A stretch of 64,000 bases of DNA, taken from contig JBKAGP010000001.1 in NCBI GenBank assembly GCA_046290465.1, positions 2,912,001 through 2,976,000 of the forward strand, read 5' to 3'. Below are positions 1,910 to 57,186 of the stretch, piece by piece. This DNA is from Planctomycetota bacterium. GTDB lineage: Bacteria > Planctomycetota > UBA1135 > UBA2386. Position 1 is the stretch's first letter; every line of letters begins with the position of its first letter. Below the pieces are notes generated by a model that had not been told where the DNA came from, did no database searches, and saw only the letters and a list, made by a program, of their open reading frames with translations. Both the position numbers and the translations under genes were made by a program.

Positions 1910-3208
1910 TCAGTTCCGCGGCCGGAACGCGTCCTGCGAGCACAGGTAGCTGTAGCGCTCGGAGAACGCCTCGGGCGTCATGTTGGCGGCCTGCGCGATC
2001 GCGGCCAGGCGATCCGCGTGCGCGAAGTCGTCCGGCTCGAGCCGGATCTGGTACTCGCGCGCGACGCGGTAGGCCTCCGACTCCGGGTTGACCGTGCGCA
2101 CCCGCGGCCGGCCGGTCGCCGGATCGTTGAACGTGCCGAACCGCAGCGGCACCAGTTCGCCGCGCTGGATCGTCACCATCGCGCCGACCTCGTCCTGGCG
2201 GCCGCTGCGGATCAGGCCGCGCAGGTAGTCGATCGCGCCGTAGCCGAGGTCGCGGGTGTACTCGATGTCGAACGGGATCGGCGGCGCACTGCGCAGCTCG
2301 TAGCCGATGTTCTTGGCGACGATCGTCACCTGGTGGCCGTTGTCGGCGAGCCGCTTGCGCACGATGTCCGTCAACAGGCGGTGCAGGTGCACCTCCGACA
2401 GACGCACGTGGCCGTGGTCGTCGCGTTCGCCGTGCGGCATCGCCTTGTCGAGGTCGTCCGCCGGGAACCGCAGGCTCAGACCTTCGGCCATCACCGCGAC
2501 CCCGAACGGCCGGCCGTGCGCGATGCGCTTGTAGATCGACGTCTCGAGGATGTCGACGACGTGGTCCAGCCGGATCGGCTGGTCCGCCGGGAAGTCCTCG
2601 GGGATCACCGTCAGCGTCGCGCCGGCCGACTTGCCGATGCCCTGGGCGAGGTGGCCCGCCTGCCGCCCCATCGCGACCACGAAGAACCAGCGCCGCGTCG
2701 TCAGCGCGTCGGTCATCAGGTTGGTGACCTGCTCGGCGCCGACGTGGCGCGCGGTCTGGTAGCCGAACGTCGGCACGTCGCCGGGCAGCGGCAGGTCGTT
2801 GTCGATCGTCTTCGGCACGTGCGCGACGCGCAGCCGGCCGGCCGCCGCCTGTGCGACCACCGCGGCCGAGTAGCCGGTGTCGTCGCCACCGATGGTCAGC
2901 AGCGCGTCGAGTTCGAGCTCCTTCAGCGCCCGCACGGTCGCGTCGAGCTTGTCGGGCTGCTTGGTCGGGTTGGCCCGTGACGTGAACAGCACCGAGCCGC
3001 CCTGCAGGTGGATGCGGCTGACGTCCTCGACCGTCAGCGGCTGCACGTGCGACGTCTCCCCCTGCATCAGCCGCGAGAAGCCGTCCGGGATGCCGACGAC
3101 CGTCCAGCCGGAGTTGATCGCCTCGATCGTCGCCGCGCAGATGACCGAGTTCATACCGGGAGCAGGACCACCCCCGCAGAGAATGCCGAGCTTGACGTTG
3201 TCGCCCAT
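1910..3208 (-). CDS. pfp: Phosphofructokinase family, probably PPi-dependent
   Basis: GGGPAPGMN, GGDDT (Asp typical of PPi-dependent enzymes), PKTIDND, MGR, GYELR. Confidence 0.85.
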   Translation of the reverse strand: MGDNVKLGILCGGGPAPGMNSVICAATIEAINSGWTVVGIPDGFSRLMQGETSHVQPLTVEDVSRIHLQGGSVLFTSRANPTKQPDKLDATVRALKELELDALLTIGGDDTGYSAAVVAQAAAGRLRVAHVPKTIDNDLPLPGDVPTFGYQTARHVGAEQVTNLMTDALTTRRWFFVVAMGRQAGHLAQGIGKSAGATLTVIPEDFPADQPIRLDHVVDILETSIYKRIAHGRPFGVAVMAEGLSLRFPADDLDKAMPHGERDDHGHVRLSEVHLHRLLTDIVRKRLADNGHQVTIVAKNIGYELRSAPPIPFDIEYTRDLGYGAIDYLRGLIRSGRQDEVGAMVTIQRGELVPLRFGTFNDPATGRPRVRTVNPESEAYRVAREYQIRLEPDDFAHADRLAAIAQAANMTPEAFSERYSYLCSQDAFRPRN

Positions 3209-3277
3209 ATCGGGCGGTTGGGTTACCGGCACGCCCGCTGCTTCGCAACGACGCGCGCCGCAATCGTGGCGCGCCGC

Positions 3278-3904
3278 TCAGCGACCACCCATCGAACCCG
3301 CCACCGCACCTTCGCAGCTCGGACAGTCCGTATCGCCCCAGGCCTTCATCCGGCCGGCCTCCTGCATCGAGCGCAGCAGTTCCATGCCCTTCTTGGAGTG
3401 TTCGCGCAGTTCGTCACCCCATCGCCGGCGTTCGTCGTCCGTCAGCCGCAGCAGGTCCATGCGCCGATCGAGCCAGCTCTGCACCAGTTCGTGCAACGCC
3501 TGCAGCCGCACCTTCAGGTCGTCGCTGCGGAACGCACGCCGCTCGGCATCGGACAGGCCCTTGCCCCAGGTGTTGCCGCCGTGCTTGAACGACACGAAGT
3601 CGGGCCGCGCGCGGTAGTGACGGAACGCCTCGAGCACGTAGATGCAGGTCGGGCAGCCGTAGACGAAGTGCTGCCACTCGCCGTCGCCGGCGGCGAGCAC
3701 GCGATCGACGGTGCCGTTGTCGACCCCGTCGACGTAGAGACCCTCGAGCGTCGCGTAGAAGATCTCGTGACCCATGTCGACCTTGCGACGCGGCTCGGCT
3801 GCAGCCGGCGCAGGGTCCTGCGCGACTGGCGACCCGGCTGGCGACCCGGCTGGCGACCAGAGACAAGCGGACATCACGATCATTGCGGTGGTCAGGGTCT
3901 TCAT
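3278..3904 (-). CDS. Secreted hypothetical protein with two CxxC motifs
   Basis: Signal-like N-terminus; GCPTC and DCPSC; codon usage like neighbours. Confidence 0.7.
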   Translation of the reverse strand: MKTLTTAMIVMSACLWSPAGSPAGSPVAQDPAPAAAEPRRKVDMGHEIFYATLEGLYVDGVDNGTVDRVLAAGDGEWQHFVYGCPTCIYVLEAFRHYRARPDFVSFKHGGNTWGKGLSDAERRAFRSDDLKVRLQALHELVQSWLDRRMDLLRLTDDERRRWGDELREHSKKGMELLRSMQEAGRMKAWGDTDCPSCEGAVAGSMGGR

Positions 3905-4106
3905 GGTGGTCTCGCTGGACGTCGCCAACCGGACGTCGATATGGGCCGGTTGTTATCCGACGCGCTCCTCTTTCGGGCCACGGCAACGGGCAATCAACCC
4001 GGCCTTCGCACCTTGCGTGTTTGGTGAGCTACGCTCCAATGTCTGGCCAACCTCACGCTCGACCACCCCCCGGCGTGAGGGGCTCAATACTCACTTCCAC
4101 TTGCAC

Positions 4107-6047
4107 ATGCACAAGCATCTCCTCCTGGCGGCCGCCGCGGCCGCCGCTCTCGCGTCGATGGCTTCGGCCCAAATCGGCCGCGAAACCCTCGTCATCGACC
4201 TCGAAACCCCGACCGGCGGCAACAACGGCCACCTCGGCTGCGCCTACGATCTGATCAACGGCCGCATCTACACCACCTCGCGCGGCAACGGCACCGCGAC
4301 GGTCGGCCCGCACACGATCAATGTCTGGGACACCTCGGGCGCGCTGCTCACGTCGCTCGGCCAGACGCCGGCGTCGGACGCGACCACGTGGGGCTACCGT
4401 GACGGCGCCAGCTCGATCGTCGGCCAGGTCTTCTTCGGCTGGGACGGCGGCATCGACGTCTACGACGTCGACCCGACCACCGGCAACCTGCTGCCGGCCG
4501 CCTCGCTGATCGCCGCTGGCGGCGTCACCGCGCTGACGCAGCCGAGCCCGACCGATCCCGGCCTGATCACCAGCGCCGCCGTCGGCGGCACGCACCGCGC
4601 GCTGGCCTTCAACTTCTACGGCAACGGCGGCTTCGGCTCGTTCTTCGTCGGCAACTTCGGCGGCGACATCTTCGAAGTCGACGCAGCCGGCAACGTGCTG
4701 AACCAGTTCCCGAACACCAGCGCCATCACCTGGTCGTCGTACGGCTTCGCGCTGGACGACAAGGGCGACGCCGACGAGACCAACGACACGCTGTGGATCA
4801 ACGCGGCTCCCAACGCCAGCCGCATCGTCGAGTACTCGATCGACCGCATCAACCTGGCGCTGACGCCGACCGGCCTCAGCTTCGACCGCAACCAGCCGGG
4901 CACCGCCCAGGGCGGCCTCGCGCTCGTGCCGGGTGGCCTCGACGGCCGTAACTGTGGTTACGACCTGATCGGCGTCGACCAGGGCACGCCCGACACGCTC
5001 GCCGGCTACCGCGTCATCCAGTGGGAAGGCTCCGACCCGGCCAACGAGCCGCAGCTGCTCACCGGTGTCGACGGCGGCACGCTGTCGGCCGACGCGTCGA
5101 TCGCCAACATCGTCACGACGACCCTCGAGGTCGACGTGCAGTCGGCCGGCACGGCCGGCCTGCCGTACGTGCTCTACGCTGACGTCGAGCCGTTCACGGC
5201 GCGCGCTCCGGGTCCGCTGCCGTTCGTCGGCGCGTCGATCTGGGAGTTCGCGTTCCCGAACCTGACCGGCGTCAGCGCCGGCACGTTCGTCGGCGGCACC
5301 CCCGCGGTGTTCCCGAACTTCCTGACGACGGTGCCGGCCGGCACCAGCGTGACCTGGCAGGCGTTCTGCATCGACGTCTCGGCGCCGGTCGCGGCCTGTG
5401 GCCAGAACCTGACGTTCCTCGGCCTGCCGTGGGCGGCGTCGACGATGGCGAGCCACACCCGCGGCGTCGACCCGCAGGACATCGCGACGATCCGCGCGAC
5501 GGGCGCGAACTCGTTCAACAACGACACCACGTCGGGCTTCTTCTCGATCACGGCCGACGCCAACTCGGCCGCCGACCCGATCGTCTCGGTGACGTTCGAC
5601 TGGGCGACGTCGAGCAACCCGGCGCAGGGCACGATGGTGTTCGACACCGACCAGACCGGCATGGCCAACACCTTCTGGGAAGGCAACGGCGGCGGCTGCG
5701 GCGGCACCTACCGCAACGGCTCGGACGTCACGGTCGGCCTCGACTACACCAACGCTGCGAACAACCTGTTCGACACGGCCACGTGCGCGGGCTCGATCGC
5801 GCACTGTGAGGCCACCAACCCGACGACGGCTCCGACCTACCAGACGCTGAAGTGGCACTTCACGCCGGGCACCTGGGTGCCGGGCACGGTGTTCGAGTTC
5901 GACATCGACACCGATGGCGGCGCCGGCATCACCGGCGACGCGATGGCCGGCATGGTCGTCACGGTCGAGACCCAGAGCGGCGCCATCTACACGGGCGAGC
6001 TGCAGGTCGACCTCGCGACCCCGCAGTCGAGCTTCGTCAAGCTCTAG
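4107..6047 (+). CDS. Large secreted beta-rich hypothetical protein
   Basis: [22 protein letters not shown] signal peptide; Gly/Thr/Asn-rich; strongly C/G-ending codons. Confidence 0.8.
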
Positions 6048-21118: not shown

Positions 21119-21193
21119 GCGGGTGTAGTTCAGTGGTAGAACGTCAGCTTCCCAAGCTGAATGTCGTCGGTTCGATCCCGATCACCCGCTCCA
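21119..21193 (+). tRNA. tRNA-Gly (anticodon CCC), CCA encoded
   Basis: Full cloverleaf: acceptor GCGGGTG/CACCCGC, D-arm GTTC/GAAC, anticodon arm TCAGC-TTCCCAA-GCTGA, T-loop TTCGATC. Confidence 0.97.
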
Positions 21194-34706: not shown

Positions 34707-34899
34707 GGCCCGCCCCCTCACCCGAAATGCTGTTTCCCGGTGAGGGGCGCAGGCGGTTCTTCACAGCGCGCTGAGAACGCCGAGCCCCTCCCGAAGGAAA
34801 GAGCCAGACTGAGCGCCTGCCTGCAGGCGCACCAGAAGAGAGAAGCGGCGCGCGGAAGCACCGAAGCGTTGCACGGACCGTGACAGCTTCGCTGGCGCG
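34707..34899. repeat. Structured intergenic element, copy A
   Basis: Colinear similarity to 35396-35583; hairpins GAGGGGC/GCCCCTC and GCGCCTGC/GCAGGCGC; ends in CGTGACAGCTTCGCTGGCGCG. Confidence 0.8.
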
Positions 34900-34963
34900 A
34901 GGACGTGCTGCGAAGGAGCGTGCGCACCACGTGGAGAAACGGTGCGCGAACAACGCCATCGCC

Positions 34964-34993
34964 TGCACGGGCCGTGACAGCTTCGCTGGCGCG
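34964..34993. repeat. Extra copy of the 30-bp terminal motif
   Basis: TGCACGGGCCGTGACAGCTTCGCTGGCGCG, 1 mismatch to 34870-34899. Confidence 0.9.
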
Positions 34994-35086
34994 TCGACCG
35001 TGCTTGCGATGGCGCACGCGCACGATTGAAGCGGCGCATCTCACCCCCTAAGCGGGAAGCCAGCGTGCGCTGGCCTCCCTCGAGGA

Positions 35087-35377
35087 TCAGTAGTCTGCCG
35101 GCAACAGCACCGTCGTCGCCGACCGGTCCGCCTCCGTGATGATCCAGAACTTGGTTCCCGCCGAGCTCCGGTAGACCGAGAACAGCCGGAAGCCCTGCTT
35201 CAACGACAGGTCGTTCTCCTCCCAGTCCTCGGGACAACACTCGCCCCAGTCTCCCTGCACATGGCGGCCCAACGCCGCCTGAATCTCGTCAGGGGGAATC
35301 GCTGCCAGCGCCGCCGGCGTGCTCACAAGACGTCCTAGTGGGAACGTCCGGCCTCTCTTGTCTTCGAATGCATCCAT
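35087..35377 (-). CDS. Small plasmid/ICE-associated conserved protein
   Basis: FPLGRLVSTPAA...RHVQGDWG...FWIITEADRSATTVLLPADY signature; RBS GGAGG. Confidence 0.8.
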   Translation of the reverse strand: MDAFEDKRGRTFPLGRLVSTPAALAAIPPDEIQAALGRHVQGDWGECCPEDWEENDLSLKQGFRLFSVYRSSAGTKFWIITEADRSATTVLLPADY

Positions 35378-35395
35378 GTCGACCTCCGTCGTTTG

Positions 35396-35583
35396 GGCCC
35401 GCCTCCTTCCCCGGTCACGCTTTCCCGTTGAGGGGTGCGGGCAGTTCTTCGCCTCGGCCTCAGAACGCCCGCACCCCATCAGGGAAAGCAGGACGACCGT
35501 GCGCCGTTCGTCGGCGCACCTACCTGGAGAACACGGGCGCGAGCCGCGTGCTATGCAGGTGGCGTGACAGCTTCGCTGGCGCG
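35396..35583. repeat. Structured intergenic element, copy B
   Basis: GGGGTGCGGGC/GCCCGCACCCC, CTTTCCC/GGGAAAG and GTGCGCCG/CGGCGCAC stems; same 21-bp terminal motif. Confidence 0.8.
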
Positions 35584-35696
35584 GCACGTGCCACACGCAG
35601 GGCGAGCGCACCGAGCCGTCATGCCGAGCTGCTGCAGCCGAGCGCGAAAGCGCCCGGCGCCAACAAGGGCGCCGGGCAGGTTGGCAAGGCGTGTCG

Positions 35697-40388: not shown

Positions 40389-40952
40389 CCGTGCGCCAGC
40401 CCGCATCGCGGATGCTAGCTGCAACGGTCACGATGGTTCGCCAGCCGCCCCGAAGTGGTCCGAACTGTTCGTAATCGCCTCTTATTGACGAAGAGATAGG
40501 TCATGCTCGACGAGTGGTTGCGCCGTGGTTTCCCGCGCATGGCGGCCATACCACGTTCCGTTGCTTGATCCCCGCTCCGATTTGTTTGGCCAGGCTGGTC
40601 GCGTCCCGCGACGCCATCGCCTGACAGGCAGAGCGGTTGAGACCACAGGTTGTTCCTGGACGGACTCCCGCACTCTCTCCCGTTCAGTGCTAAAGCCCCG
40701 CCCACGGCTGCCTCGTGATCCTTCCCTCCGACCGCGTTCCGTCGCACCCAGCGAGCCCCGTGCACGCGCCGAACATGAACGAGCGCACGTGACAGTTTCT
40801 CGCATCAATCCAGAACTCCTTAGCCAGAGCCTTCCCGAACGCGCCCCGTAGAAGTACGACCGGATGTTCGCAGAGGTAGTTGCTCGCAACCCGCCATGTC
40901 GGCACAGCTTCTGCCCGGGTATCTGGGGCCTCGAACCCCTGGAGGCATCGCA

Positions 40953-43244
40953 ATGCTGAAGAAGGTTGTTGCAATCAAGAATGTCGGCAAGTTTCGCAAC
41001 TGCGGATCTTCCGGAGATGTCCAATTTCGACGCGCGACACTGATGTTCGCGCCGAATGCGCGGGGCAAGACCACCTTGTGTGACATCCTTCGGTCGCTCC
41101 GCACGGGTGACGGTTCCTACATCATGGGAAGACAGACGCTCGGCTGCGCTGACGGCCCAGAAGTCGAGCTCCTCACTGAGGCCGGCAAATGCGACTTCCG
41201 GTCGGGGGGATGGACAGGCACGGTCGCACACCTTGAGGTGTATGACTCACGCTTCGTGAACGACAACGTCCACGCGGGCGAATGCGTTGGCCACGACCAG
41301 AGGCGAAACCTCTACAACGTCATCCTCGGAGAAGAAGGACTCGAACTGAAAGAAGACTGCGATGCGAAGGACGCAGCTAGTCGCGAAGCGATTCGGGAGG
41401 AGAAAGAGAGACAGGCCGAAGTCCAGAAGCTCATGCCGCACGCGATGGCGGTGGAGAAGTTCTTGTCACTTGAGAAGGGCGATGATTTCGATACCAAGTT
41501 CGAGGAGGCGAAGCGCCGCGTCGCACTGCTCGAAGCCTCGACCGAAGTTCAGGGGAAGAGCCTGCTATCGACAGTAACAATTCCGACCTTCCCTGCTGGG
41601 CTAGCCCAGATCCTCGGATCAACGCTTGAGGATGTCTCGGAGAACGCTGAGGCGCTGATTCAGGAGCACGCCACCAATCACATGAGGGCTACGGATGAGT
41701 CATGGCTGCACCAAGGCGTGAACCTGATGCTTAACGACGATTGCCCGTTCTGCGGAACGCTGCTCAGTGGTCGAGAGCTTCTAGCAGCCTACCGAACCCA
41801 CTTCGCCGGGAGTTACCGAGAGCACAAGGCCGCGGTGGAAGCATGGAGGGCCAGGCTCGACACGTTTGTGAGCGAAACCACGTTCCTCCGGATTCAGCAG
41901 ACGCTCGATGGCAACACCAGGCTTCTGGAAGACTGGAGAAGCTACCTCACCACCGATGAGCAGCTCGAGCTAGACGTCGACGCCCTCAGCGAGAGCCTCC
42001 TGTCCTTGCAAAGCGTCGCCCGAGATGCCTTGGCAAGGAAGTGTGAGGCGCCGCTAGAGGCAATCGATATTGCTCTGGAACTGAGTGCGGCAGAGGAAGC
42101 AGTCGCTCAGGCACGGTCCTCGGTGATGGCTTACAACTCGGCCGTCGAGAGGGTCAACGCTGCAATGCGGGCCAAGCAAGAGGAATCGCGCAAGGGAGGC
42201 CTGACGGAGGCAAGACAAGACCTTGCCGAACTCGCGGCGACGAATACTCGAGCGGGGGCGGAGGCAACAGCAGCATGCCAGGAGCTACTCGCCGCACGGA
42301 CCAAGAGAGCTGCAGCTGACCTCGAGAAGTTGAAGGCAAAACAGAAGCTCGAGAATTACTCCGAGAGCGTCTTTCAACGCTACGAAAAGCGCATCAACGA
42401 GTATCTCAAGAGGTTCGGCACATCCTTCAGAGTTCGAAAGACGGCGGCCGAGTTTCCGGGCGGGAAGCCTCGCACGACTTATTGCCTAGCCATCGAGGCG
42501 CACGAGGGTTCATGGGAGGAGGTGAGGCTAGGGGACCTCAAGACGCCCAATGACCAGGCGTCGTTCAAGAACACGCTCAGCGCAGGTGACAAGAGCGCTC
42601 TTGCGTTGGCGTTCTTTTTCGCTCAGGTCGAGGCGAGTCCAAACCTGGCGGACAAAGTGGTCGTGCTGGACGACCCCTTTACTAGCCAGGATCGCGGGAG
42701 AAGAGTCTGCACTCAGCAGAGCATCAGAAGGCTCGCCCAGAAGACACGCCAAGTTGTCGTTCTGTCCCACGACCCCAACTTCCTAAAGCTCATATGGGAC
42801 GAGTTGCCCGCGGCCGAGAAGAAGACACTCCAGCTCACTGAGCTTGGCGGCGTGATGGAGTGGGACATCGAGAGCGAAGTGCTTGAGGAGTACTATCAGA
42901 ACTTCACGACACTCTGGAAGTACTGCGAGTATCGCGATGGCAGCCCCGAGAGTGTTGTGAAGACAATGCGCGTCCTGCTGGAGAAGTACCTTCGGTGGAA
43001 GTTGCCGAACCAGCTTGACGCGAAGGGATGGCTCGGCGACTACGTGAAGGCCATCGCGGACGCCGACGAAGGATCTCCGCTCGCACAGGCCAAGTGCATC
43101 CTCGAAGACTTGGAGGACCTCAAGGATTACGCGAAGCGATACCACCACCCACAAGACGATGGCACGAGCAGCGGGCAGTTGGTCGATAGCGACGAGCTCG
43201 CGACCTATGGGAAGCGAGCTCTGGAACTCGTGCAGAAGTTCTAG
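40953..43244 (+). CDS. Rad50/SMC-like ABC ATPase with zinc hook, RloC-like (AAA_13)
   Basis: Walker A APNARGKTT, coiled coil with CPFC, signature LSAGD, VLDDP, LSHD; C-terminal helical domain RVLLEKYL...KRYHH. Confidence 0.8.
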   Translation: MLKKVVAIKNVGKFRNCGSSGDVQFRRATLMFAPNARGKTTLCDILRSLRTGDGSYIMGRQTLGCADGPEVELLTEAGKCDFRSGGWTGTVAHLEVYDSRFVNDNVHAGECVGHDQRRNLYNVILGEEGLELKEDCDAKDAASREAIREEKERQAEVQKLMPHAMAVEKFLSLEKGDDFDTKFEEAKRRVALLEASTEVQGKSLLSTVTIPTFPAGLAQILGSTLEDVSENAEALIQEHATNHMRATDESWLHQGVNLMLNDDCPFCGTLLSGRELLAAYRTHFAGSYREHKAAVEAWRARLDTFVSETTFLRIQQTLDGNTRLLEDWRSYLTTDEQLELDVDALSESLLSLQSVARDALARKCEAPLEAIDIALELSAAEEAVAQARSSVMAYNSAVERVNAAMRAKQEESRKGGLTEARQDLAELAATNTRAGAEATAACQELLAARTKRAAADLEKLKAKQKLENYSESVFQRYEKRINEYLKRFGTSFRVRKTAAEFPGGKPRTTYCLAIEAHEGSWEEVRLGDLKTPNDQASFKNTLSAGDKSALALAFFFAQVEASPNLADKVVVLDDPFTSQDRGRRVCTQQSIRRLAQKTRQVVVLSHDPNFLKLIWDELPAAEKKTLQLTELGGVMEWDIESEVLEEYYQNFTTLWKYCEYRDGSPESVVKTMRVLLEKYLRWKLPNQLDAKGWLGDYVKAIADADEGSPLAQAKCILEDLEDLKDYAKRYHHPQDDGTSSGQLVDSDELATYGKRALELVQKF

Positions 43245-43506: not shown

Positions 43507-44187
43507 ATGATGGAGAGGAAGCTCGCTTGGTTTCCATTCACGACAGCACAGGTCGAGATCGCACTCGGCTTGGCCGGACTCGGTGCTACAGCGGCCTCGT
43601 TACTCGAGGTCCCGGGCCCAACGGTCGCGCTTGGAACGGCGGGCTTCCTCCTCCTCACCTTTCTCGTCGGGCTGCTTGCCGCTGCTTCCGGCAACCGAGT
43701 GGCGCGTGTGCACCTCGATGGGGCCCTGCACGGGCGCGGCTACGCGGATCTGTTCCGACACGCCCACCGCAGCCTGCTCCTCATCCATCTCGACGACGAC
43801 GCGCCTCACGATGAGCTCTTGGGCCTCTACCGTCGACTGCTCGAGCGCGGCATCGAGATTCGTCGCCTGATCTTCGTACGTCCTGACCACCGTCAAGCCG
43901 GAGTTCGCTGGATCCGCGAGTTCGGGCCGCACGAGCTTCTTCGCCAGAGGTTTGTCGAGACCGCGTCGGGGAACCCGCTCCCGCTGAGCTTCGCGGTCGT
44001 CGATGAGGACGCCGTCCTGATCGCCGTTCCCGGATACCACCCAACCGAAACGGAAACGTTCGGGGACGGCCTCGTGCTACGACACCTGATCGAACTCCGA
44101 CATCCGACGATCACTCGCGCATTCCTCGAGGCCTACGAATCTGCCTGGAGGCGAGGTACGCGGCTGGAGGACGACTGCCTGGCGTAG
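43507..44187 (+). CDS. 2TM protein with C-terminal PLD-like (non-HKD) domain
   Basis: Two N-terminal hydrophobic helices; LERGIEIRRLI, FAVVDEDAVLI, FLEAYESAWRRG pattern. Confidence 0.6.
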   Translation: MMERKLAWFPFTTAQVEIALGLAGLGATAASLLEVPGPTVALGTAGFLLLTFLVGLLAAASGNRVARVHLDGALHGRGYADLFRHAHRSLLLIHLDDDAPHDELLGLYRRLLERGIEIRRLIFVRPDHRQAGVRWIREFGPHELLRQRFVETASGNPLPLSFAVVDEDAVLIAVPGYHPTETETFGDGLVLRHLIELRHPTITRAFLEAYESAWRRGTRLEDDCLA

Positions 44188-44253
44188 TCGGGCGCACGGT
44201 CCGTGGCACGCGAATCAGTGCACGGCTACCGACCTCGCGGTCACGCTCGATTC

Positions 44254-44505
44254 TCACCGCTTTCTACGCAAACGCCGATCCAGCTCCTTGCTGAACTCAA
44301 CGAACGGCACCCCCAACCCGCGACACCACTCCCGCACCTCGAGGATGTCGAGCCGCCGCTCACCGTTCTCGGATTTGCTCACGTAGGACTGGGGCACCCC
44401 GAGACTCTCCGCCAAGTCGGCCTGAAGAGTCCCCTCACGCTCGCGTAGCTCGCGCAGCAGATCCCGAAGCACTCGGTACTCGGGCGTATGGGTGGACTTG
44501 GGCAT
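44254..44505 (-). CDS. XRE-family HTH regulator
   Basis: LRELREREGTLQADLAESLGVPQSYVSKSENGERRLD. Confidence 0.9.
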   Translation of the reverse strand: MPKSTHTPEYRVLRDLLRELREREGTLQADLAESLGVPQSYVSKSENGERRLDILEVREWCRGLGVPFVEFSKELDRRLRRKR

Positions 44506-44540
44506 CTGTGGAGTCTCTGCACCGAATCCTACTTCCCCAC

Positions 44541-44569
44541 TTGGCATATCCCAGTTTCGGATCTAGCAT
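44541..44569 (+). promoter_or_regulatory. Sigma70-like promoter with an operator-like IR in the spacer
   Basis: TTGGCA-17 nt-TAGCAT, 9 nt before ATG 44579; ATCC-N7-GGAT at 44548-44562. Confidence 0.5.
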
Positions 44570-44578
44570 CTAGACCGT

Positions 44579-46009
44579 ATGGCCGTCCTCCGAGAAGCCG
44601 TGACCCCACCAGAGGTCCTCTTCGTCCACGCCCCCTACCCCGGCCGTCTGAAGTTTCGCGCGGTGCCGAGCAGCATGTTCGCAGCTGCCGGCCCCTTCGT
44701 CGTAGCCAACCCGAAACGCCAAGTGAGCTACCTCGACCCCGGCAGCCCGACCGCCGAGTTCTACCGGCACCTTGAGGGTCTGCTCGCGACCGGGCGAGTA
44801 CGCGCGCTGTGCATCTCGACGTCTACGGCAGCCATCGAAGAAACGGCGCGGATCGCCGCAACGAGCTCCCTCTTCGCGCCTGAGACCCTCGTCATCGTAG
44901 GCGGGCCACACGAGAACGACATCGGCACCAAGACCGCCAACCGACTCCCCGGTGTGCACATCTCGATCGGCGGCGAAGCACCCTCGGCCCTGCAGGGCGT
45001 GCTCGAGCTGTATCTGACAGACAATCGAACGGCAGCGGATTTCGCGCGGGACCTGCACCCGGGCGAGCTCGACGAGGCCACCACCTGTGGGGTGTTCACG
45101 GTCGCGAACTGCAACTGGCCCGCGAGGGTCGAGTTCGACCGCGGCCCCAGTCGCTTCCGCGACCCGCGGCCGCTCGTGGTTCCCGAGAGCTACCCACGAT
45201 TCGACGTGTTCGAGGCCCCGTCGACGATTCCGCTCATGGTCTCCCGTGGCTGCTCGTATGGGCGGTGCACGTTCTGCGCGGAGGCCAACCGGGATGGCAG
45301 CGTGTTCCGCACAAGCGACTACGGATGGGTCGAAGAACTGGCCGACCGTGTCCCGGACGCCGCACTCTACTTCCAGGACAGCATCTTCCCGGCCGGCAAC
45401 GGCTCGAGCTCCGAACTGCTTCCGCTACTACGCGGTCTCGACCGCGAATGGGGCTGCCAGGTCTACCTGCCGACCCTCACCGAGCGACGCATCGCCGAAC
45501 TCGCTGACCATGGTTGCACCTACCTCTATGCCGGCATCGAATCGGGCGCTCCGGACGTGCTCGAGGGCATCCGGAAGCCGCAGCTGCAGCCAAGACTGGT
45601 CGCGGAACGCACGAAGTGGATCGCGAAGCAGGGGCCGCGGGTCGGGCTGTCGCTGATGTTCGGCTCGATGTCGACCAAGGGGGTCGTTCTCGAGAACAGA
45701 CGGTCCCTGAACCTGACTCGCGACCTGACCGATGCGGTCCGCGACACCGACGTCAAGGTCGCCGGGTTCTATCCCAACGTGCAAACGGTGCTGCCAGGGA
45801 CTCAGCTCGCTCGCGGGATGGCCGAGGCGGGGCACCACCTGGACTTCTACAGCATGCCCCGGGCACCGGTCTTCGACGGCCTGGAAGACGGAGGGGTCGG
45901 CTACAACTTCCTCACGGTCGGCGGCCCATCCGCGAATGACCTCGCGCTTGCCGAAGACATCGTCGCGACCGCCCGCGACATCCAGACGGTCGGAGTGTGC
46001 TCATGGTAG
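44579..46009 (+). CDS. B12-binding-domain radical SAM protein
   Basis: VIVGGPH; SRGCSYGRCTFC (Cx4Cx2C); YFQDS, GIESG, LPGT. Confidence 0.85.
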   Translation: MAVLREAVTPPEVLFVHAPYPGRLKFRAVPSSMFAAAGPFVVANPKRQVSYLDPGSPTAEFYRHLEGLLATGRVRALCISTSTAAIEETARIAATSSLFAPETLVIVGGPHENDIGTKTANRLPGVHISIGGEAPSALQGVLELYLTDNRTAADFARDLHPGELDEATTCGVFTVANCNWPARVEFDRGPSRFRDPRPLVVPESYPRFDVFEAPSTIPLMVSRGCSYGRCTFCAEANRDGSVFRTSDYGWVEELADRVPDAALYFQDSIFPAGNGSSSELLPLLRGLDREWGCQVYLPTLTERRIAELADHGCTYLYAGIESGAPDVLEGIRKPQLQPRLVAERTKWIAKQGPRVGLSLMFGSMSTKGVVLENRRSLNLTRDLTDAVRDTDVKVAGFYPNVQTVLPGTQLARGMAEAGHHLDFYSMPRAPVFDGLEDGGVGYNFLTVGGPSANDLALAEDIVATARDIQTVGVCSW

Positions 46010-47493
46010 TGCCTCATCCGAGGCATGCCCGGCTTCCGCTGTCGCGCCCTCCGGAGCTCGTAAGGGACCTCGACCGGATCATCATCGGGCAGGACCATGC
46101 GAAACGTGCCCTGGCGCTTGCCGTGTACCGACACCAGCTGGGCCTCTCGGAGGCCTCCGAACACAACGGTCCAGCATTCGGCGCTCAGCACGTCTTGCTC
46201 GTAGGCCCAACCGGCTGTGGGAAGACCCGAATGGTCCGAGAGCTCGGCCGTCTGATCGCCCCCCCCATCGCCACGTGCTCCGCGACGAATCTCGTCGAGG
46301 TCGGCTATGCGGGCGAACACCCAGACAGCATCGTGCACCGACTGCTGCATGCGGCCGATGGCGACGTGCGCCGAGCGGAGCGCGGGATCATCTTCATTGA
46401 CGAGATCGACAAGAAGCGCCGGTCGACCGACGGCTCGAGGGACATCTCCGGCGAAGGCGTGCAGCAGTCCCTGCTGAAACTGATGGACGGCGCCAAGGTT
46501 GCCATCCGCCGAGAGGGCGAGACGACGATGGTCAACACTCGCGGGATTCTCTTCGTGTGTGCCGGCGCGTTTCCTGGGATGGAGGAGATCCTCGATTCCC
46601 GCCACCGACGAGGATCTCTCGGATTCACAGGCATCCAAGGTGATCCCGGCCCGGTCTCCCCGGAGCTCGAAGGCCACGGAGCGCTCGTCGAGTTCGGCAT
46701 GATCCCGGAACTTCTCGGGCGTTTCACGACCGTCGCCCACCTGCGCCCGCTGACGCTCGACGAGCTCGAACGTGTACTCTCGGACTCCAAGGCATCGATC
46801 ATCCGCAGCACCCAAGCGTTCGCCGCGAAACACGGTGCCAAGCTCTCGATCTCGAAAGGAGCCATGCGAGCCATCGCCCGACGTGCGCTGTCCCTTGGGA
46901 CCGGAGCTCGAGCGCTGGACCGGGTCGCGACGAAGGTTCTCGAGCCGACGATCTGGCGCCTCCTTCAGGAGCAGAGGCCCGTGCATCGGATCGAGGTTAC
47001 CTGCCGGACGGTGGACGAGGGACAGAAGGCCCGTTTCCACTACGGAGCATCGACGCGAGCTGCGAAGGAGGACCGCCCGGCCCTCCCACCGTTCGTCACG
47101 CGCGAGTTCGGCCGTGTCGATGGAATCACGAACACGAGGGGCTGGACGCACGATCAGATTCGCGAACGGCTCGAAGAGGTCCTTCCGAGCCTCGAGGTCG
47201 ACGCGGCTCCCAAGTCTGCCAGGACTTGGTGGCAACGATTCGTGGACGCGCGCGAACCCGATCCGCGCGTCGTGCTCCGCGTCGCGGAAGAGCTGACGAA
47301 GAGGGAGGCGACTATCGCCGAGCTCTTCACCGCATTCGTCTGTTCGGCGACGAACAGCATCCAGGGGATCTTCCACTACCTGGACTACAAGCGACTGAAG
47401 GACGAACTGGACCGGAAGCCGAAGGTGAAGCCATCTGAGAACGGGGCGCGAGACGCGCAGGATCTCGGCCTCACAGATGGTCCGCGGAAGTAA
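46003..47493 (+). CDS. ClpX-like AAA+ ATPase lacking the zinc-binding domain, with C-terminal extension
   Basis: IIGQDHAKRAL, GPTGCGKT, FIDEIDK, RDISGEGVQQSLLK, LGF loop, IPELLGR, TGARAL. Confidence 0.88.
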   Translation: MVVPHPRHARLPLSRPPELVRDLDRIIIGQDHAKRALALAVYRHQLGLSEASEHNGPAFGAQHVLLVGPTGCGKTRMVRELGRLIAPPIATCSATNLVEVGYAGEHPDSIVHRLLHAADGDVRRAERGIIFIDEIDKKRRSTDGSRDISGEGVQQSLLKLMDGAKVAIRREGETTMVNTRGILFVCAGAFPGMEEILDSRHRRGSLGFTGIQGDPGPVSPELEGHGALVEFGMIPELLGRFTTVAHLRPLTLDELERVLSDSKASIIRSTQAFAAKHGAKLSISKGAMRAIARRALSLGTGARALDRVATKVLEPTIWRLLQEQRPVHRIEVTCRTVDEGQKARFHYGASTRAAKEDRPALPPFVTREFGRVDGITNTRGWTHDQIRERLEEVLPSLEVDAAPKSARTWWQRFVDAREPDPRVVLRVAEELTKREATIAELFTAFVCSATNSIQGIFHYLDYKRLKDELDRKPKVKPSENGARDAQDLGLTDGPRK

Positions 47494-47662
47494 ACATCGA
47501 CGGACGGCCGCATCCGAAGGCGATCCGCGGCAGGGGCTTCGCGACGTGTGCGCGTTTACAGAACCGAGAGAGCCTTCGGGTGGGATTCCCGCGGTGCATC
47601 CGCGACCTACCGTGGTTTGGACGTGCCCAGCGAAACCAGGCCCACATCAGGAGACGGCAAGC

Positions 47663-47947
47663 ATGATCCCACCACACAGTCCACGAGATCGCGATCCCGG
47701 CCAAGTAGTTGGCGCCCGCGAGTTCGCCTGCGACCTGCTACGGCTGATCGCATCATTCGATTCCCTCAGGCGCCAACGCGATGTCAACCGAGCCGTCGCA
47801 GACGGGGTGAGTTCGGCGCTTCAGCTTCTCCCGGACTCGGGCCTCGAGTCTCTCATACATCTGCTCGCTTCGTTGCAGAGGAGTGCGAGCACTCACGTGA
47901 CCACGAGCAGGGGCCGGCCGCCAGAAGGGACGCATCACAACAACTAG
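47663..47947 (+). CDS. Small hypothetical protein
   Basis: AGGAG upstream; helical; ends 10 nt before the DUF5131 gene. Confidence 0.4.
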   Translation: MIPPHSPRDRDPGQVVGAREFACDLLRLIASFDSLRRQRDVNRAVADGVSSALQLLPDSGLESLIHLLASLQRSASTHVTTSRGRPPEGTHHNN

Positions 47948-47957
47948 AGGGTGACCG

Positions 47958-48680
47958 ATGAGCCGATCGACAATCGAATGGACCAACGCCACGTGGAACC
48001 CGGTGACGGGCTGCACGAAGACCAGTCCAGGCTGCAAGCACTGCTACGCGGAACGCATGGCAAGGCGCCTACAGGCGATGGGGCAAGCCAACTACGCGAG
48101 GGGATTCCAGCTCACGCTCCAGGAGCACATGCTCGATATCCCACTGCGCTGGCGGAAGCCCCGGCTCGTGTTCGTCAACTCGATGAGCGACCTGTTCCAC
48201 AAGGACGTGCCGACATCGTTCATCCAGCGCGTGTTCCGAACCATGGAGCAAGCGCCTCAGCACACGTTCCAGGTCTTGACGAAGCGCGCGGATCGACTGC
48301 GAGAGGTCGCCCCTCAGCTGCCCTGGCCTGAGAACGTCTGGATGGGCGTGAGCGTCGAGAACGCCGACTACCTCGACCGGATCGACGACCTGCGAACCGT
48401 TCCCGCCAACGTCCGCTTCCTCTCTCTCGAGCCGTTGCTGGGCCCGCTAACCGAGATCGACCTGACCGGCATCGGCTGGGCCATCGTCGGCGGAGAGTCC
48501 GGACCTGGCGCACGGGCGATGGACCCCGAGTGGGTTCGGGATCTCCGAGACGCCTGCGCGGTCGGTGGCGTTCCGTTCTTCTTCAAGCAGTGGGGAGGCA
48601 CGAACAAGAAGAAGGCCGGCCGCCTACTCGACGGAAGGATCTGGGACGAGATGCCGTCCCGGGGGCCAACTCGCGCGTAG
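47958..48680 (+). CDS. DUF5131 (phage Gp37/Gp68) family protein
   Basis: [51 protein letters not shown]. Confidence 0.92.
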
Positions 48681-53278: not shown

Positions 53279-53947
53279 TCATGCTTTGCCGCCGCAGGGC
53301 CCCACCCCATCGATCCCGAACGGTCTTACGACCGTGCGCCGTAGCCGCAAACAGTCGACCGGCAGCTTCCCCAGCCCGGCGACCTTGCGCTCCTTGTTGA
53401 CGGCTCTGAGGAGCGAGAGAAGCTGTCGGCGAACAGGTGCATAGGGCTCGAAGCCGAGGTACTGGAACTCCGCAGCAACCTGTCCGACCGACCGTCGACG
53501 TGCTAGCTCGAGCAGGTAGGCCTTGAGGGAACGGTAGCGCTCCGGGTGGATCCGAACCGAAACATGCCATCGCCGATCAGCACCACGATGCCAACCGATC
53601 GAGTAGCCGCCGAAAGCGATCGGCTGGAGCCGAACGTCCCTGACCTGCGAGGCCGAGTGCTCCTCGTAGAACCGATGGCCCTCTCGCGGCTCGGTGGCAC
53701 ACAACACGAAGAACCGCCGAAACCGGATGTACTGGACGTTGGGCAGACCCGCCCGCTTGCGCCGCGCACGGACGAACTTCGACACGCCGAGCTCGTAGCG
53801 CTCGATCATCCGCTCGTCCACGGCGCGTGGGTCCTTGTGCGGTGGGATCTCACCGACGACGTAGTGATGGTAGCCGTGGCGGACGTAGCAGCACGCAAGC
53901 TGCTGGACGAACCCCGCCACGGACGTGGCTTCACACCTGTAGTTCAC
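53279..53947 (-). CDS. Highly basic hypothetical protein
   Basis: YRCEATSVAGFVQQLA...RARRKRAG...FEPYAPVRRQL; GTG 53947 chosen, start uncertain. Confidence 0.7.
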   Translation of the reverse strand: MNYRCEATSVAGFVQQLACCYVRHGYHHYVVGEIPPHKDPRAVDERMIERYELGVSKFVRARRKRAGLPNVQYIRFRRFFVLCATEPREGHRFYEEHSASQVRDVRLQPIAFGGYSIGWHRGADRRWHVSVRIHPERYRSLKAYLLELARRRSVGQVAAEFQYLGFEPYAPVRRQLLSLLRAVNKERKVAGLGKLPVDCLRLRRTVVRPFGIDGVGPCGGKA

Positions 53948-55492
53948 AACTGCACCTATCAACTTCCTGGCACCTCTCCGCTCCACAGAACGGACAAGTG
54001 CGGAGCGTTTACGGGCACGCTCCAAGCCGCTGAACCTTCCGGCCAGCGACCATCGCCCAACCATGTTGATCACCTCCTTGGCAACCTCGTTGCGCGCATA
54101 CCCACATTCCAGATCGCACGCCCGCAGGGCGTGTCCAATCCATGATGGTTGCGCTAGACCTCCTTGCGACGGCCGCCGGATAAACCTCCGGCGTCCATCG
54201 TCATCCTGTCGCCGCAGGGGGCGGCTCCTCCCGGAGCACTTCCCTACCCCCTGCAGCCACAAGTCGTGCTTACCAAGCAACCGTCACCTCGAGTGACGTT
54301 TCGTTCGCTCGTCGCTGCTTTCGTCGTCGCTGTGCTCGCCGGGGCCAACCGGCGTGCGCGAACGCGGGTCCTGACTGCCTTGCCAGGAAGAAGTCGCACG
54401 AAGACTCCTTCGAGACCCTTCGGTCTCGCCACCGCTCGGGCTCCCGCCCGACTTCTACTTGCAGCTCGCTCCCAGACTCGAGCCTTTGAATCACCTGGTC
54501 GACAGCCAGGCACCGGGCACCTCCCCGGCAGCTCGAGTCCTTCCCCGATTAGTGGACCACGTCGAAGCATGGGTCACGTTGCTAGCGGCGTTTCACGCCG
54601 CGGCACGAGCCCGTGAAGCCTAGTCTCCCGACCGGTGCTTCACTCTCCCCGGAGCAGGTCCTCCGGGATTTCAGGCGGCAGAATGCAGAAGCTCCGCCTT
54701 ACAGACCGGACAGGTGCGTTCGCAGTTCGGCACCGTCTCCCATGCTTCTGACCAGCAAGCCCTCGCGGGCCTTTCACCGTTGAACTTTTCACGGCCGAGG
54801 GACTTTCCCTCGGTCCCCGGACTTGTCAGGTCCGGTCGATTCGCCTCGCGGCGATCGAGCTCCCGGCGCTGGCTTGCGTTGAACGGACGCGGTGTCGATC
54901 ACGACAACCGGGCCCGGACCCCGCAGGTGGATTTGGCAGCACGCCTCTTCCTCGCTTGCTCGATGGCACCCGCCACGACGGACGGGCAATCGCACGAGTC
55001 ATGCCCGTGCGGGGCAAGCGGGGTGTCGGCGCCTTCGCTACCTCACCAACTTCGTCATCCACGACCACTCGGAGTTCCACCGCGTGGCGTGTCTCGGTCG
55101 TCCCGCCTCCGAAGCGCGGGATCACCATGAGATAGAATGAGCGGATTGACGTTCGACGCATGTTCGGGAGAGGGGCACCGCGCCCCTCGGAACCGATCCC
55201 GAGAGCGCGGGCGCCAAGGCCCGATGGATTCGAACGGATTACTCGCTCAAGCCTCTCTCGCACTGGACGAGCCCGTCTCCGGGCATCCAGCGCTACGAGC
55301 CAACATCACGGCAGGCGGTGAACCCTGCCCCCTTAGCCTGGTGGCTACCAGGTTTGCCGGGTGATGCTGCGGCACTTCGAGGCGACGTCAGACCGTGTTT
55401 CGAGTTCTGACGACGAGGAGCCCCTGTGGAGCTCCATGAGACCAGGGTACCATGACACGCAAGGCCTTGGCAAAGCGCCGCCACACCGGAGC

Positions 55493-56053
55493 ATGCAAGG
55501 CAGCCAACATCAACGGAGAACCACCATCATCGACTCGGAACTCAAGCGAGCGGCATACCACGAGGCCGGCCACCTTGTCGTCATGAGGCATCACGGAGTA
55601 ATGATCCGCACAGCCATCGCCCGGACGAATGGCGACGGACGCGCGAGCCACTACGAACCGCCTCAAGACGATCTTGGCACCCACCTCGATCTCTACATGA
55701 GCGGCCCCGCTGCAGAGTGCCTCATCGGCGAAGAGCTAGCCCCTCCGAACCCCGCCGAGCTCATCGACCTCCAGAGCCTTCCTCCCATCAGGTGTCCGGA
55801 CCACCTGGAGGCCATGTGCATCTTCAGAGAGAGGCGGCCTGACGAGGGGTTCGGAGGAATGTCCAAAGCCCTCTGGGAATCGCACAGGAGATGCCACGAC
55901 ATCTTGGCGCTGCAGGGCATTGCGCTCCAGCATGTCGCCGAAGCCCTTCACACGAGGCCGAACAAATGCGTGCCCGGCCACCTGATCGACCGAGTTCTGG
56001 ATGAACACTGGATGCACGGCCCCGCCTTGGGCAACGAGGAGCCCCTCGCATGA
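55493..56053 (+). CDS. Stand-alone M41-like HExxH metallopeptidase domain protein
   Basis: RAAYHEAGHLVV, SGPAAE, VAEALH; no AAA domain; start uncertain. Confidence 0.65.
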   Translation: MQGSQHQRRTTIIDSELKRAAYHEAGHLVVMRHHGVMIRTAIARTNGDGRASHYEPPQDDLGTHLDLYMSGPAAECLIGEELAPPNPAELIDLQSLPPIRCPDHLEAMCIFRERRPDEGFGGMSKALWESHRRCHDILALQGIALQHVAEALHTRPNKCVPGHLIDRVLDEHWMHGPALGNEEPLA

Positions 56054-57186
56054 CGTCCGTTTTCATCAGTTCCGTCATGAGTGGCATGGAGGACATGCGC
56101 GCGGCTGCCGTAGCGGCGTGCGAGTCCGTTGGCGTCGACCTCATTCGCGCGGAGGACTTTGTAACCGACGGGGCAACGCCTCGAGGAGCTTGCCTTCGCG
56201 GCGTTGCGCAAGCCGATGCAATGATCCTCCTTCTCGGCCAACGATACGGGGCGAAACTAGACAGCGGGCGATCCGCCACGGCGGAGGAGTTCGCCGAAGC
56301 CAAGCGGCACAACAAGGACATCCTGGTCTTCAGGACAAGCGCCGACCCCGAATCGGATCAGTCTGCATTCATCGCCGAGGTTGGCGCGTGGCAAGGCGGA
56401 CTCTCCTACAAGCTGTGCTCGTCTTCCATTGAGCTGCAGAAGGAGCTTGTCCGAAGCCTGTTGCAATGGAGCTCCGCCCCACCGGTCGGAGACATTGACC
56501 GCCGAGTTAGCAGCAACTTGTCCAAGGTCGTCCCATCGACCAACTCAAACTACCTCGGAAGCGATCCACCTCGGCTCGCGATCTCGTGGACCCCGAGCCA
56601 GCCGCTCATGCTCAACGAAGACGTCGTCTTCGATCACCTCCCCGATGTGGCTGGCGACCTTCTTGTCGCCGGCCCAACCAGACTCCTCGACGCGCGCCCG
56701 ACCCATTCGACCGAGCCGGACGGAATTGCGCTCCAAAACCGCGACCAGGAGCCCCCCATGCTCCGTGGCTGGATCGGAACGGACCTCTCCATTGCTATCT
56801 GCGTCGGAATCGTCCAAGGCCACTCGCACAATCACGACGGGATGATGACTCCCATGTTCTTCCTCTCGCCGAGCGACCTCCACAGAGCAACAAGCAGGCT
56901 GCTCGCATTCGTAGGTGCAGTGCTCGGCCACGTGGACTCCGATCGACGGTGCAACGGTGGGCGTATTCAGTTCTGCCTGTCGGGAATGGGATCCCGAGTG
57001 ATTGGCGAAGCGCAACCGGGCCAGTCATCGTTTCAGGTGAACATGCACAACGGCGGACGAGACGGCGGCGACATCGTCACTCCGGCGCATCCAGAGGCCA
57101 TCGTGAGATCCCAACTTGCGGCTGAGAGCGCCGCAGTCGAACGAGTGCTCAAGAGACTGATCCGGCAGTGCGGCGGGGGATCATAG
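56050..57186 (+). CDS. DUF4062 domain protein with unknown C-terminal domain
   Basis: VFISS, CLRGVAQAD, LLGQRYG, SATAEEFAEA; ATGA overlap with the peptidase. Confidence 0.85.
   Translation: MTSVFISSVMSGMEDMRAAAVAACESVGVDLIRAEDFVTDGATPRGACLRGVAQADAMILLLGQRYGAKLDSGRSATAEEFAEAKRHNKDILVFRTSADPESDQSAFIAEVGAWQGGLSYKLCSSSIELQKELVRSLLQWSSAPPVGDIDRRVSSNLSKVVPSTNSNYLGSDPPRLAISWTPSQPLMLNEDVVFDHLPDVAGDLLVAGPTRLLDARPTHSTEPDGIALQNRDQEPPMLRGWIGTDLSIAICVGIVQGHSHNHDGMMTPMFFLSPSDLHRATSRLLAFVGAVLGHVDSDRRCNGGRIQFCLSGMGSRVIGEAQPGQSSFQVNMHNGGRDGGDIVTPAHPEAIVRSQLAAESAAVERVLKRLIRQCGGGS

Follow-up and report, generated by a model that had tools for sequence, protein, structure and literature searches.

A repressor-controlled module of mobile elements joining a membrane-anchored pseudo-phospholipase D protein to an orphan B12-domain radical SAM enzyme, with a ClpX-like unfoldase in some lineages

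We analyzed a stretch of 64,000 nucleotides (the window) from contig JBKAGP010000001.1 of the Planctomycetota bacterium assembly GCA_046290465.1 (forward strand, positions 2,912,001 to 2,976,000); coordinates below are those of the window unless a locus is named. The window contains a block of four genes encoding a protein with two transmembrane helices (2TM) and a phospholipase D (PLD)-like fold, a small XRE-family regulator, a radical S-adenosylmethionine (SAM) enzyme with a B12-type domain, and a ClpX-like ATPase (Table 1), and a preliminary description, made from the letters alone, had proposed these four genes as a new defense unit lying between two defense loci. Comparison with related loci shows that the conserved core consists of the 2TM, XRE, and radical SAM genes and that the ClpX-like gene is optional. 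The module is undescribed and takes its place among the repressor-controlled accessory or defense-island modules of mobile elements.

Table 1. Features of the module and of its surroundings in the window (ORF, open reading frame)
Feature	Position	Strand	Basis or remark
2TM membrane-anchored protein, cytoplasmic PLD-fold domain without HKD; core component	43507-44187	+	ORF
XRE-family HTH (helix-turn-helix) repressor gene, 83 aa	44254-44505	-	conserved ATG at 44505; longest ORF to 44547
Divergent control region, 73 nt	44506-44578	.	promoter-like site and inverted repeats
Orphan B12-binding-domain (class-B-type) radical SAM enzyme; predicted catalytic core	44579-46009	+	motif C225-x4-C230-x2-C233
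ClpX-like AAA+ unfoldase, lineage-specific add-on	46003-47493 (alternative start 45997)	+	NF003745 9e-84
tRNA-Gly(CCC) gene; island start	21119-21193		tyrosine integrase adjoins
AAA_13 'RloC-like' gene, candidate system PDC-S06	40896-43244	+	PADLOC 2.6e-70
DUF5131 (Gp37/Gp68, radical-SAM-related) gene	47958-48680	+	PADLOC PDC-M41B/M30B 2e-121; also L002 9371-10099, L024 9761-11955
~222-aa ORF	53279-53947	-	no Pfam, NCBIfam, or PADLOC match

The comparison set comprised 50 loci encoding relatives of the radical SAM protein, 19 from genomes and 31 from metagenomes, and single loci are cited by L number where they must be told apart. Of the 41 loci whose upstream sequence extends to 250 nt or more, 36 have a homologous small ORF that is divergent from the radical SAM gene and directly upstream of it. 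The remaining five are three decayed radical SAM fragments (L013, L016, and L019) and two outgroups, with identities of 39% and 27%. For the 2TM gene, 28 non-duplicate loci were informative, having both an intact radical SAM N-terminus and 1 kb or more of upstream sequence (L031, L042, and L044 were dropped as duplicates of L003, L018, and L029, respectively). It was present in 26 of these and missing from L026 and L046. The association is kept even where the arrangement differs: L006 has an inverted 2TM gene, which lies after the XRE gene and on its strand, and insertions separate the 2TM and XRE genes in L002 (a 360-aa ORF), in L032 (a DUF4145 gene), and in L029/L044 (positions 2170-5128, encoding RadC, a family 2 (GT2) glycosyltransferase, and a SPASM radical SAM protein). 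Sixteen of 50 homologues of the 2TM protein had longest contigs equal in size to those of radical SAM homologues, which supports the co-occurrence. ORFs of L017 and L018 in which the 2TM and radical SAM genes seemed to be fused were rejected as fusions, the two tblastn matches lying in different frames. Co-occurrence in other genomes, on which the proposal had beforehand been said to stand or fall, was thus found for the 2TM, XRE, and radical SAM genes and in part for the ClpX-like gene. The family was detected in 2 of 401 sampled Planctomycetota genomes, the window genome included, and is single-copy there; all module sources are metagenome-assembled genomes (MAGs) of uncultured Planctomycetota, Myxococcota, and similar bacteria. 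Near-identical copies of module and flanks (L009 versus L014; L017 versus L018) occur in MAGs labelled Myxococcota/Polyangiaceae and Planctomycetota/Brocadiaceae and represent either very recent transfer across phyla or mis-binned mobile contigs.

The radical SAM protein was rightly assigned to the B12 type as far as architecture goes, with a class-B fold, an N-terminal Rossmann B12-type domain, and a three-Cys motif. Family models recognize it weakly: Pfam Radical_SAM (3.5e-5) and B12-binding (1.2e-3) both scored under their cut-offs in the window copy (PF02310 reached 19.1 bits against a cut-off of 32.1 and is recorded for most homologues), and the best NCBIfam matches were at ~1e-5, where the cut-offs are several hundred bits. 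The AlphaFold2 (AF2) model (predicted local distance difference test, pLDDT, 92) has the full class-B architecture, with residues 9-476 aligned, and its structural Z scores (VIA) were 24.2 for AprD4, 23.5 for MgmA, 22.7 for CysS, 21.6 for TsrM, and 21.3 for OxsB, so that AprD4 and MgmA are tied at the top within 1 Z unit; Foldseek puts MgmA first. Cobalamin binding, for which no sequence motif is diagnostic, is predicted from this architecture. The clade is an orphan family of at least 167 proteins at E ≤0.001, of which the 120 listed all lie at E ≤1e-105, and an alignment of 22 members has 71 invariant columns, including those of the C225-x4-C230-x2-C233 cluster, GGPHE, and YFQDSIFP. ESM Atlas returned generic B12-radical-SAM clusters only, two of them mostly viral, and searches of viral contigs (with radical SAM and 2TM profiles), PLSDB plasmids, and GenBank phages found no relative of the radical SAM protein. 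At the C-terminus (~46004-46006), 9 of the 22 aligned members end on a conserved Trp and two more have one residue after it, and in others this Trp is internal and followed by a tail. The terminal Trp may be a docking or recognition feature.

The two-domain layout is common to class B enzymes (MgmA, PDB 9ccb; TsrM; TokK; CysS; OxsB) and to the B12-domain enzyme AprD4 (6fd2), and the size is close to that of MgmA and AprD4. However, identity to these enzymes is just 11-18%, the protein does not score as a member of any curated family, and its cysteines are spaced as Cx4Cx2C where the canonical motif has Cx3Cx2C. Its gene lies on a mobile element under XRE control, outside any biosynthetic or methanogenesis context. 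The two nearest structural neighbors act on different kinds of substrate: AprD4 is, by its entry title, a diol dehydratase and not a methyltransferase, and acts on a small molecule, whereas MgmA is the methyl-coenzyme M reductase glutamine C-methylase and modifies protein. Viperins have no B12 domain and match the radical SAM barrel alone (Z ~13). Ophion, in the available text of its preprint (bioRxiv 10.1101/2025.09.30.679545), consists of the radical SAM protein OpnA with PHP and PRTase partners. As here, viperins and Ophion place a radical SAM enzyme in a defense-island context, but the PHP and PRTase partners given in that text are absent from the window module, which has only the superfamily in common with it.

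The 2TM protein was described as PLD-like, and this was borne out for the two helices and the fold and failed for the catalytic H-x-K. Hydropathy peaks at residues 14-35 and 34-65 correspond to AF2 helices at 12-31 and 36-59, in a model of moderate confidence (pLDDT 75.7), and Foldseek matched the soluble domain to the C-terminal domain of TrmBL2/TrmB, NucT, Zucchini, Nuc, FAM83, and PLD2/3 (E 6e-9 to 1e-5). The HxK(x)4D motif is absent from the family alignment, which contains no H-x-K; on the strand that ends at the invariant D165, a reading of the alignment places the H at residue 158, which varies, and the K at an invariant Ser160. The family has instead its own invariant set (H93, D95-97, R118-119, H141, Q146, R147, S160, D165, R191, and H192; that is, H-x-DDD, RR, H, QR, S, D, RH) and a conserved N-terminal WFPF motif in the transmembrane hairpin. 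The protein has its fold in common with the TrmB/TrmBL2 C-terminal domain, the FAM83 DUF1669 domain, Nuc, NucT, and Zucchini, but differs from the PLD nucleases in lacking HKD, and from known PLD-fold proteins in its WFPF-bearing hairpin and in the small size of its family. A HMMER scan of 1.84 billion representatives found 83 relatives at E ≤1e-3, 33 of them at ≤1e-30, all but one of near-equal length and none in an informative fusion. This pseudo-PLD family, too, is an orphan.

The divergent XRE gene is present as described, with its start moved from that of the longest ORF (44547) to the ATG at 44505, which is kept in six aligned loci (ORFs elsewhere encode 81-98 aa). Its product matches HTH_3 (PF01381) at 1.5e-12 (47.8 bits against a cut-off of 23), and its PADLOC matches (HTH_VI, 1.1e-8; capH, 3.3e-6; Control_protein, 6.4e-6) reflect generic HTH similarity. 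A promoter scan of 4.8 kb found one promoter-like site, where 0.5 would be expected: TTGGCA-17-TAGCAT at 44541-44569 on the plus strand, which ends 9 nt 5′ of the radical SAM ATG. The distance from the −10 element to this ATG suggests an mRNA that is leaderless or nearly so. Within the spacer lies an inverted repeat, ATCC-N7-GGAT (44548-44562), and the control region also has outer arms of the GATCCTA...TAGGATC type. The promoter-like site with an inverted repeat in its spacer, noticed earlier, is real as a sequence feature and conserved across related loci: promoter and repeat are nearly identical in the window, L002, L003, and L022, where the flanking proteins are only 65-84% identical, and in L004 the repeat reads ATTC-N7-GAAT, a compensatory change of both arms. 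Because of this conservation and the change of both arms in L004, ATCC-N7-GGAT is a putative XRE-bound operator, an assignment the aligned sequences support. Small XRE HTH proteins encoded next to the genes that they regulate, with a palindromic operator in the promoter, are likewise found in C-protein/XRE cassettes (control proteins of restriction-modification (RM) systems, CapH of CBASS, and AbrR of Ambrosia), but here the genes under control belong to neither RM nor CBASS.

At the 3′ end of the radical SAM gene, the stop codon overlaps the ATG of the ClpX-like gene by 7 nt (46003-46009, ATGGTAG), just as first reported. The ClpX-like assignment also holds, as the AAA+ motifs are present and NF003745 (ClpX) matches residues 15-349 at 9e-84, with a score of 281.7 against an equivalog cut-off of 359; TIGR00382 scores 244.6 against a cut-off of 370.75, and the AAA+ module aligns with residues 55-414 of Escherichia coli ClpX (8e91) at 1e-63. 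The motifs comprise Walker A and B (GPTGCGKT, IFIDEIDK), the pore-1 loop GYAG, the sensor residues, and LGF at the IGF position; GY.G, (L/I)GF, and Walker A/B are invariant in six ClpX-like homologues, and by its aligned position (L/I)GF is predicted to be the ClpP-docking loop. The protein thus has the AAA+ module, pore loop, and (L/I)GF of ClpX, but scores below equivalog level and lacks two of its parts: no N-terminal C4 zinc-binding domain was found (the match begins at ClpX model position 59-66, and there is no Cys cluster), nor an RKH loop (a 7-residue gap relative to 8e91). It has an extra C-terminal domain of ~150 aa, an orphan with no Pfam match, no usable feature match in ESM Atlas, and structural TM scores ≤0.34; ClpX homologues of GenBank phages match the AAA+ core only, up to residue 362. 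Besides a canonical clpP-clpX pair, encoded elsewhere, the host has a second ClpP, and there is no ClpP on the island; the ClpX-like protein is island-encoded, and its gene is putatively coupled to the radical SAM gene.

This gene was present in 6 of the 27 non-duplicate loci with at least 1.2 kb of downstream sequence (L001, L002, L003, L017, L018, and L020), with a partial copy in L023, and its start overlaps or abuts the radical SAM stop (1-13 nt) in all seven distinct loci having it. The carriers form two separate clades on the radical SAM tree, which implies two changes (a single change was seen in 0 of 200 bootstrap trees), and nothing consistent lies 3′ of the radical SAM gene in loci without it. 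As judged from this arrangement, the unfoldase is a putatively translationally coupled add-on in some lineages. Of the four-gene unit first put forward, the three-gene core therefore stands, and the ClpX-like gene does not belong to what is conserved.

In the ±6 kb of sequence fetched around each locus, PADLOC detected named or candidate defense genes for 17 of the 30 loci examined (9 of 18 from genomes and 8 of 12 from metagenomes). They include type II/IIG RM, DISARM DrmB/DrmC, Druantia DruE, BREX BrxL/PglZ/PglX, Hachiman, PDC-S06, Gabija GajA/GajB, AbiE, a ThsB-type TIR protein (Thoeris-type), a Cap2-like E1-E2-JAB protein (CBASS-like), NsnA, PDC-M30, PDC-M54, and PDC-M55, and in L013 and L016 decayed radical SAM fragments lie beside Gabija genes. 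The same loci also carry ParA, RadC, ArdC, replication initiators, and relaxase-like helicases. The module itself matches no system catalogued there: at E ≤0.01, neither the 2TM nor the radical SAM protein is recognized by any family of PADLOC-DB v2.0.0 (2023), as had been predicted, and the matches of the ClpX-like protein are weak and of generic ATPase type (DolB, 1e-3; mad8; IetA). In the 30 annotated loci, no precursor peptide, peptidase, transporter, or tailoring gene recurred beside the radical SAM gene, though very short precursors could be missed. In line with the earlier view that no precursor or biosynthetic cluster is visible, the homologous loci lie on mobile elements beside defense genes and apparently not in metabolic clusters or clusters for ribosomally synthesized and post-translationally modified peptides. 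A literature search found no system of this composition; similar ones could be listed in the candidate tables of 10.1101/2025.09.30.679545, a source available in part. Of the proposal of an undescribed defense module, then, the undescribed state and the defense context are upheld, and the defense role itself is suggested by association.

In the window, the block lies on an integrative mobilizable or conjugative element. DNA outside the island has a GC content of ~0.70, and the stretch from ~21 to 60 kb has one of 0.58-0.67; the island encodes a TrwB-type coupling protein (T4CP), a TrwC relaxase, an orphan N6/N4 methylase fragment, ParA, and RadC. The earlier claim of a mobile island is borne out by the tRNA-Gly and integrase genes, T4CP, TrwC relaxase, ParA, RadC, and the GC dip. 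No att direct repeat of the tRNA-Gly end of at least 18 nt, which would mark the right border of the island, was found within 21-61 kb. The block is on the plus strand, downstream of the orphan methylase, ParA, and RadC genes, and points away from the TrwC relaxase and T4CP genes, which lie 13-18 kb from the module on the opposite strand. Between the methylase fragment and ParA (34870-35588) a 35-nt direct repeat occurs three times (TGCACGG.CCGTGACAGCTTCGCTGGCGCG...), at spacings of 94 and 590 nt; these copies could be iterons, parS, or oriT-type sites.

The block had been placed between RloC-like and Hachiman genes, and these flanks hold, with a DUF5131 gene intervening before Hachiman, of which both HamA and HamB were confirmed with PADLOC models. 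The gene called RloC-like is present, but is better identified as a PDC-S06 match and as separate cargo. In a ~97%-identical variant of the element, found on contigs of two public runs, 40673 is joined to 43477, skipping the AAA_13 gene, and the sequence is then colinear through the 2TM, XRE, radical SAM, ClpX-like, and DUF5131 genes into HamA; because this variant lacks the AAA_13 gene, we regard that gene as independent cargo. In a near-identical public assembly (L001, 885-4663), an IS256/Mutator-family transposase gene interrupts it. Membership of the DUF5131 gene in the operon is not supported: 464 nt lie between it and the ClpX-like gene, the ClpX-like genes of L003, L017, and L018 have no DUF5131 gene behind them, and it is paired with a PDC-M30A partner of its own in L024. 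There the PDC-M30A (GMT-wHTH) gene precedes the DUF5131-family gene; no such A partner was found in the window, whose DUF5131 gene looks like an orphan B component. A 156-aa ORF (47477-47947) was rejected as a gene, being of low complexity, with low GC at third codon positions, and frame-broken in L002.

The ~222-aa ORF recurs on either side of the module at variable distance in 14 fetched loci (~9 distinct elements), and was found in 9 of the 401 sampled Planctomycetota genomes, in 8 of which the radical SAM family was not found. It was rejected as a fourth component on these grounds (flanking on either side, variable distance, and eight sampled genomes with no radical SAM family detected) and probably belongs to the backbone of the element, marking one side of a zone into which cargo inserts. 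Just past Hachiman (55361-57186, plus strand), genes for a 230-aa protein of no recognized family and a 378-aa protein with an N-terminal DUF4062 domain, neither with a PADLOC match, possibly form another cargo cassette.

Taken together, these findings are consistent with an accessory conflict module governed by a repressor. Its association with defense genes makes a role in defense or counter-defense likely and suggests, in the first place, a defense system directed against phages or other mobile genetic elements (MGEs), a reading that we hold tentatively and that stays short of an even chance. We rank it first because of the breadth of the unrelated defense systems that adjoin the module, its patchy, cargo-like distribution, its decay beside Gabija, and its membrane-anchored partner. 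In such a system, an XRE dimer on the ATCC-N7-GGAT operator within the promoter would keep the near-leaderless radical SAM (and ClpX-like) transcript off, and repression would be lost when the cell is infected or when the element reaches a naive cell, giving a burst of enzyme. SAM-derived radical chemistry would follow, probably C-methylation or another C-H functionalization, and the target of the enzyme may be a protein and not a small metabolite; we suggest a protein because of the coupling to an unfoldase and the tie with MgmA, which are the sole clues. Where present, the ClpX-like hexamer would select the target via its orphan C-terminal domain, which would replace the zinc finger, and would either unfold it for modification or hand it to host ClpP via the (L/I)GF loop. 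The 2TM pseudo-PLD protein, from a transcription unit of its own, might be a membrane-bound partner that acts as a sensor of a phosphorylated ligand or as a membrane effector. The most specific version of this scheme makes the B12-type radical SAM enzyme itself the immune effector, disabling a protein of phage or host by radical C-H modification of a buried residue, with the ClpX-derived unfoldase opening the target or feeding ClpP and the membrane pseudo-PLD protein sensing or executing; we consider it a speculation with little chance of being right in all its parts.

Several observations weigh against a defense role. The association with defense genes is confounded, since the module rides conjugative or mobilizable elements, and the cargo of such elements is often defensive. 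RadC, ParA, an orphan methylase, or ArdC is usually near the module, which lies on the plus strand and away from the relaxase, and RadC, ParA, orphan methylases, and ArdC are typical of leading regions, where anti-defense genes concentrate. In 13 of the 30 loci there is no known defense neighbor, and the loci are kin (the tree has ~14 lineages), so the counts overstate independence. Roughly three quarters of the loci have no ClpX-like gene, so that this gene is not essential; the clues to substrate class are weak, since AprD4, tied with MgmA, acts on a small molecule; and the 2TM gene is a separate transcription unit that tolerates adjoining insertions. Finally, searches of phage, viral-contig, and plasmid collections found no member of the family and so point to neither a partner phage nor a host range.

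The main rival is favored by the position of the module on its element. As an anti-defense or establishment module of the leading region, it would be expressed in a burst before the repressor accumulates, inactivate a host defense or stress protein by modification, unfolding, or ClpP degradation, and then be shut off. A divergent repressor facing a near-leaderless promoter suits such zygotic induction, and the location downstream of the orphan N6/N4 methylase, ParA, and RadC genes, on a strand that points away from the TrwC relaxase and T4CP, is what this account expects; in at least 14 loci RadC is no more than 6 kb away, and in L005 ArdC adjoins. However, the "leading region" is deduced from gene order alone, oriT not having been located, and Hachiman, BREX, and DISARM share both stretch and strand with the module. 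To our knowledge, a membrane-anchored partner is not typical of anti-defense genes. No likeness to known anti-defense proteins was seen, and in the available portion of PMC11541004 radical SAM enzymes receive 0 mentions. On balance, we think this account doubtful, while giving it more weight than the two that follow.

The same divergent arrangement (36 of 41 loci) could also be a regulatory or maintenance circuit of the element with no part in phage conflict, in which XRE is the element repressor and the radical SAM/ClpX-like operon serves induction or maintenance, the unfoldase acting, for example, as an anti-repressor that feeds XRE to ClpP. The module is always on elements with ParA, RadC, relaxase, or replication genes, and a ClpX paralogue with a predicted ClpP-docking loop would be well suited to repressor degradation. 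Nevertheless, that unfoldase is missing from most loci, it is not obvious what a radical SAM enzyme would do in such a switch, the transfer genes lie 13-18 kb off on the other strand, and elements of this general kind manage without the module, as no radical SAM family was found in eight of the nine genomes (of 401) with the 222-aa element ORF; we judge such a circuit unlikely. Still less likely, in our estimation, is metabolic or envelope cargo, in which the radical SAM enzyme and the PLD-fold protein would act together at the membrane on a lipid, a cofactor, or some other small molecule, and the defense genes would be unrelated neighbors. The PLD fold and 2TM anchor do recall phospholipid enzymes, the top structural neighbor AprD4 acts on a small molecule, and the weak NCBIfam matches include hopanoid (HpnJ) and lipid/ladderane-type B12 radical SAM families, at ~1e-5 each and far under cut-off. 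Yet the 2TM protein has no HKD catalytic motif, no biosynthetic, transport, or precursor genes recur beside the module, which is rare and patchy, and tight repressor control together with a coupled protein unfoldase would be unusual for such cargo.

The module is rare and comes from uncultured MAGs only, and B12-type radical SAM enzymes are hard to express, which set practical limits on its study. If a defense or counter-defense role is true, a B12-domain radical SAM enzyme would be a new enzyme class in the chemistry of conflict between mobile elements and their hosts, and a ClpX-type machine would have found a new use there. Were the immune-effector version correct, immunity would gain its first radical SAM enzyme of the B12 class, and a protein-modifying radical SAM enzyme would for the first time be seen with an unfoldase of its own. 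The strict pairing of two orphan families, the 2TM pseudo-PLD proteins and this radical SAM clade, provides a testable handle on both. The ClpX paralogue, in which the zinc finger is swapped for a C-terminal domain and the predicted ClpP-docking loop is kept, amounts to a natural experiment that bears on how AAA+ unfoldases gain specificity.

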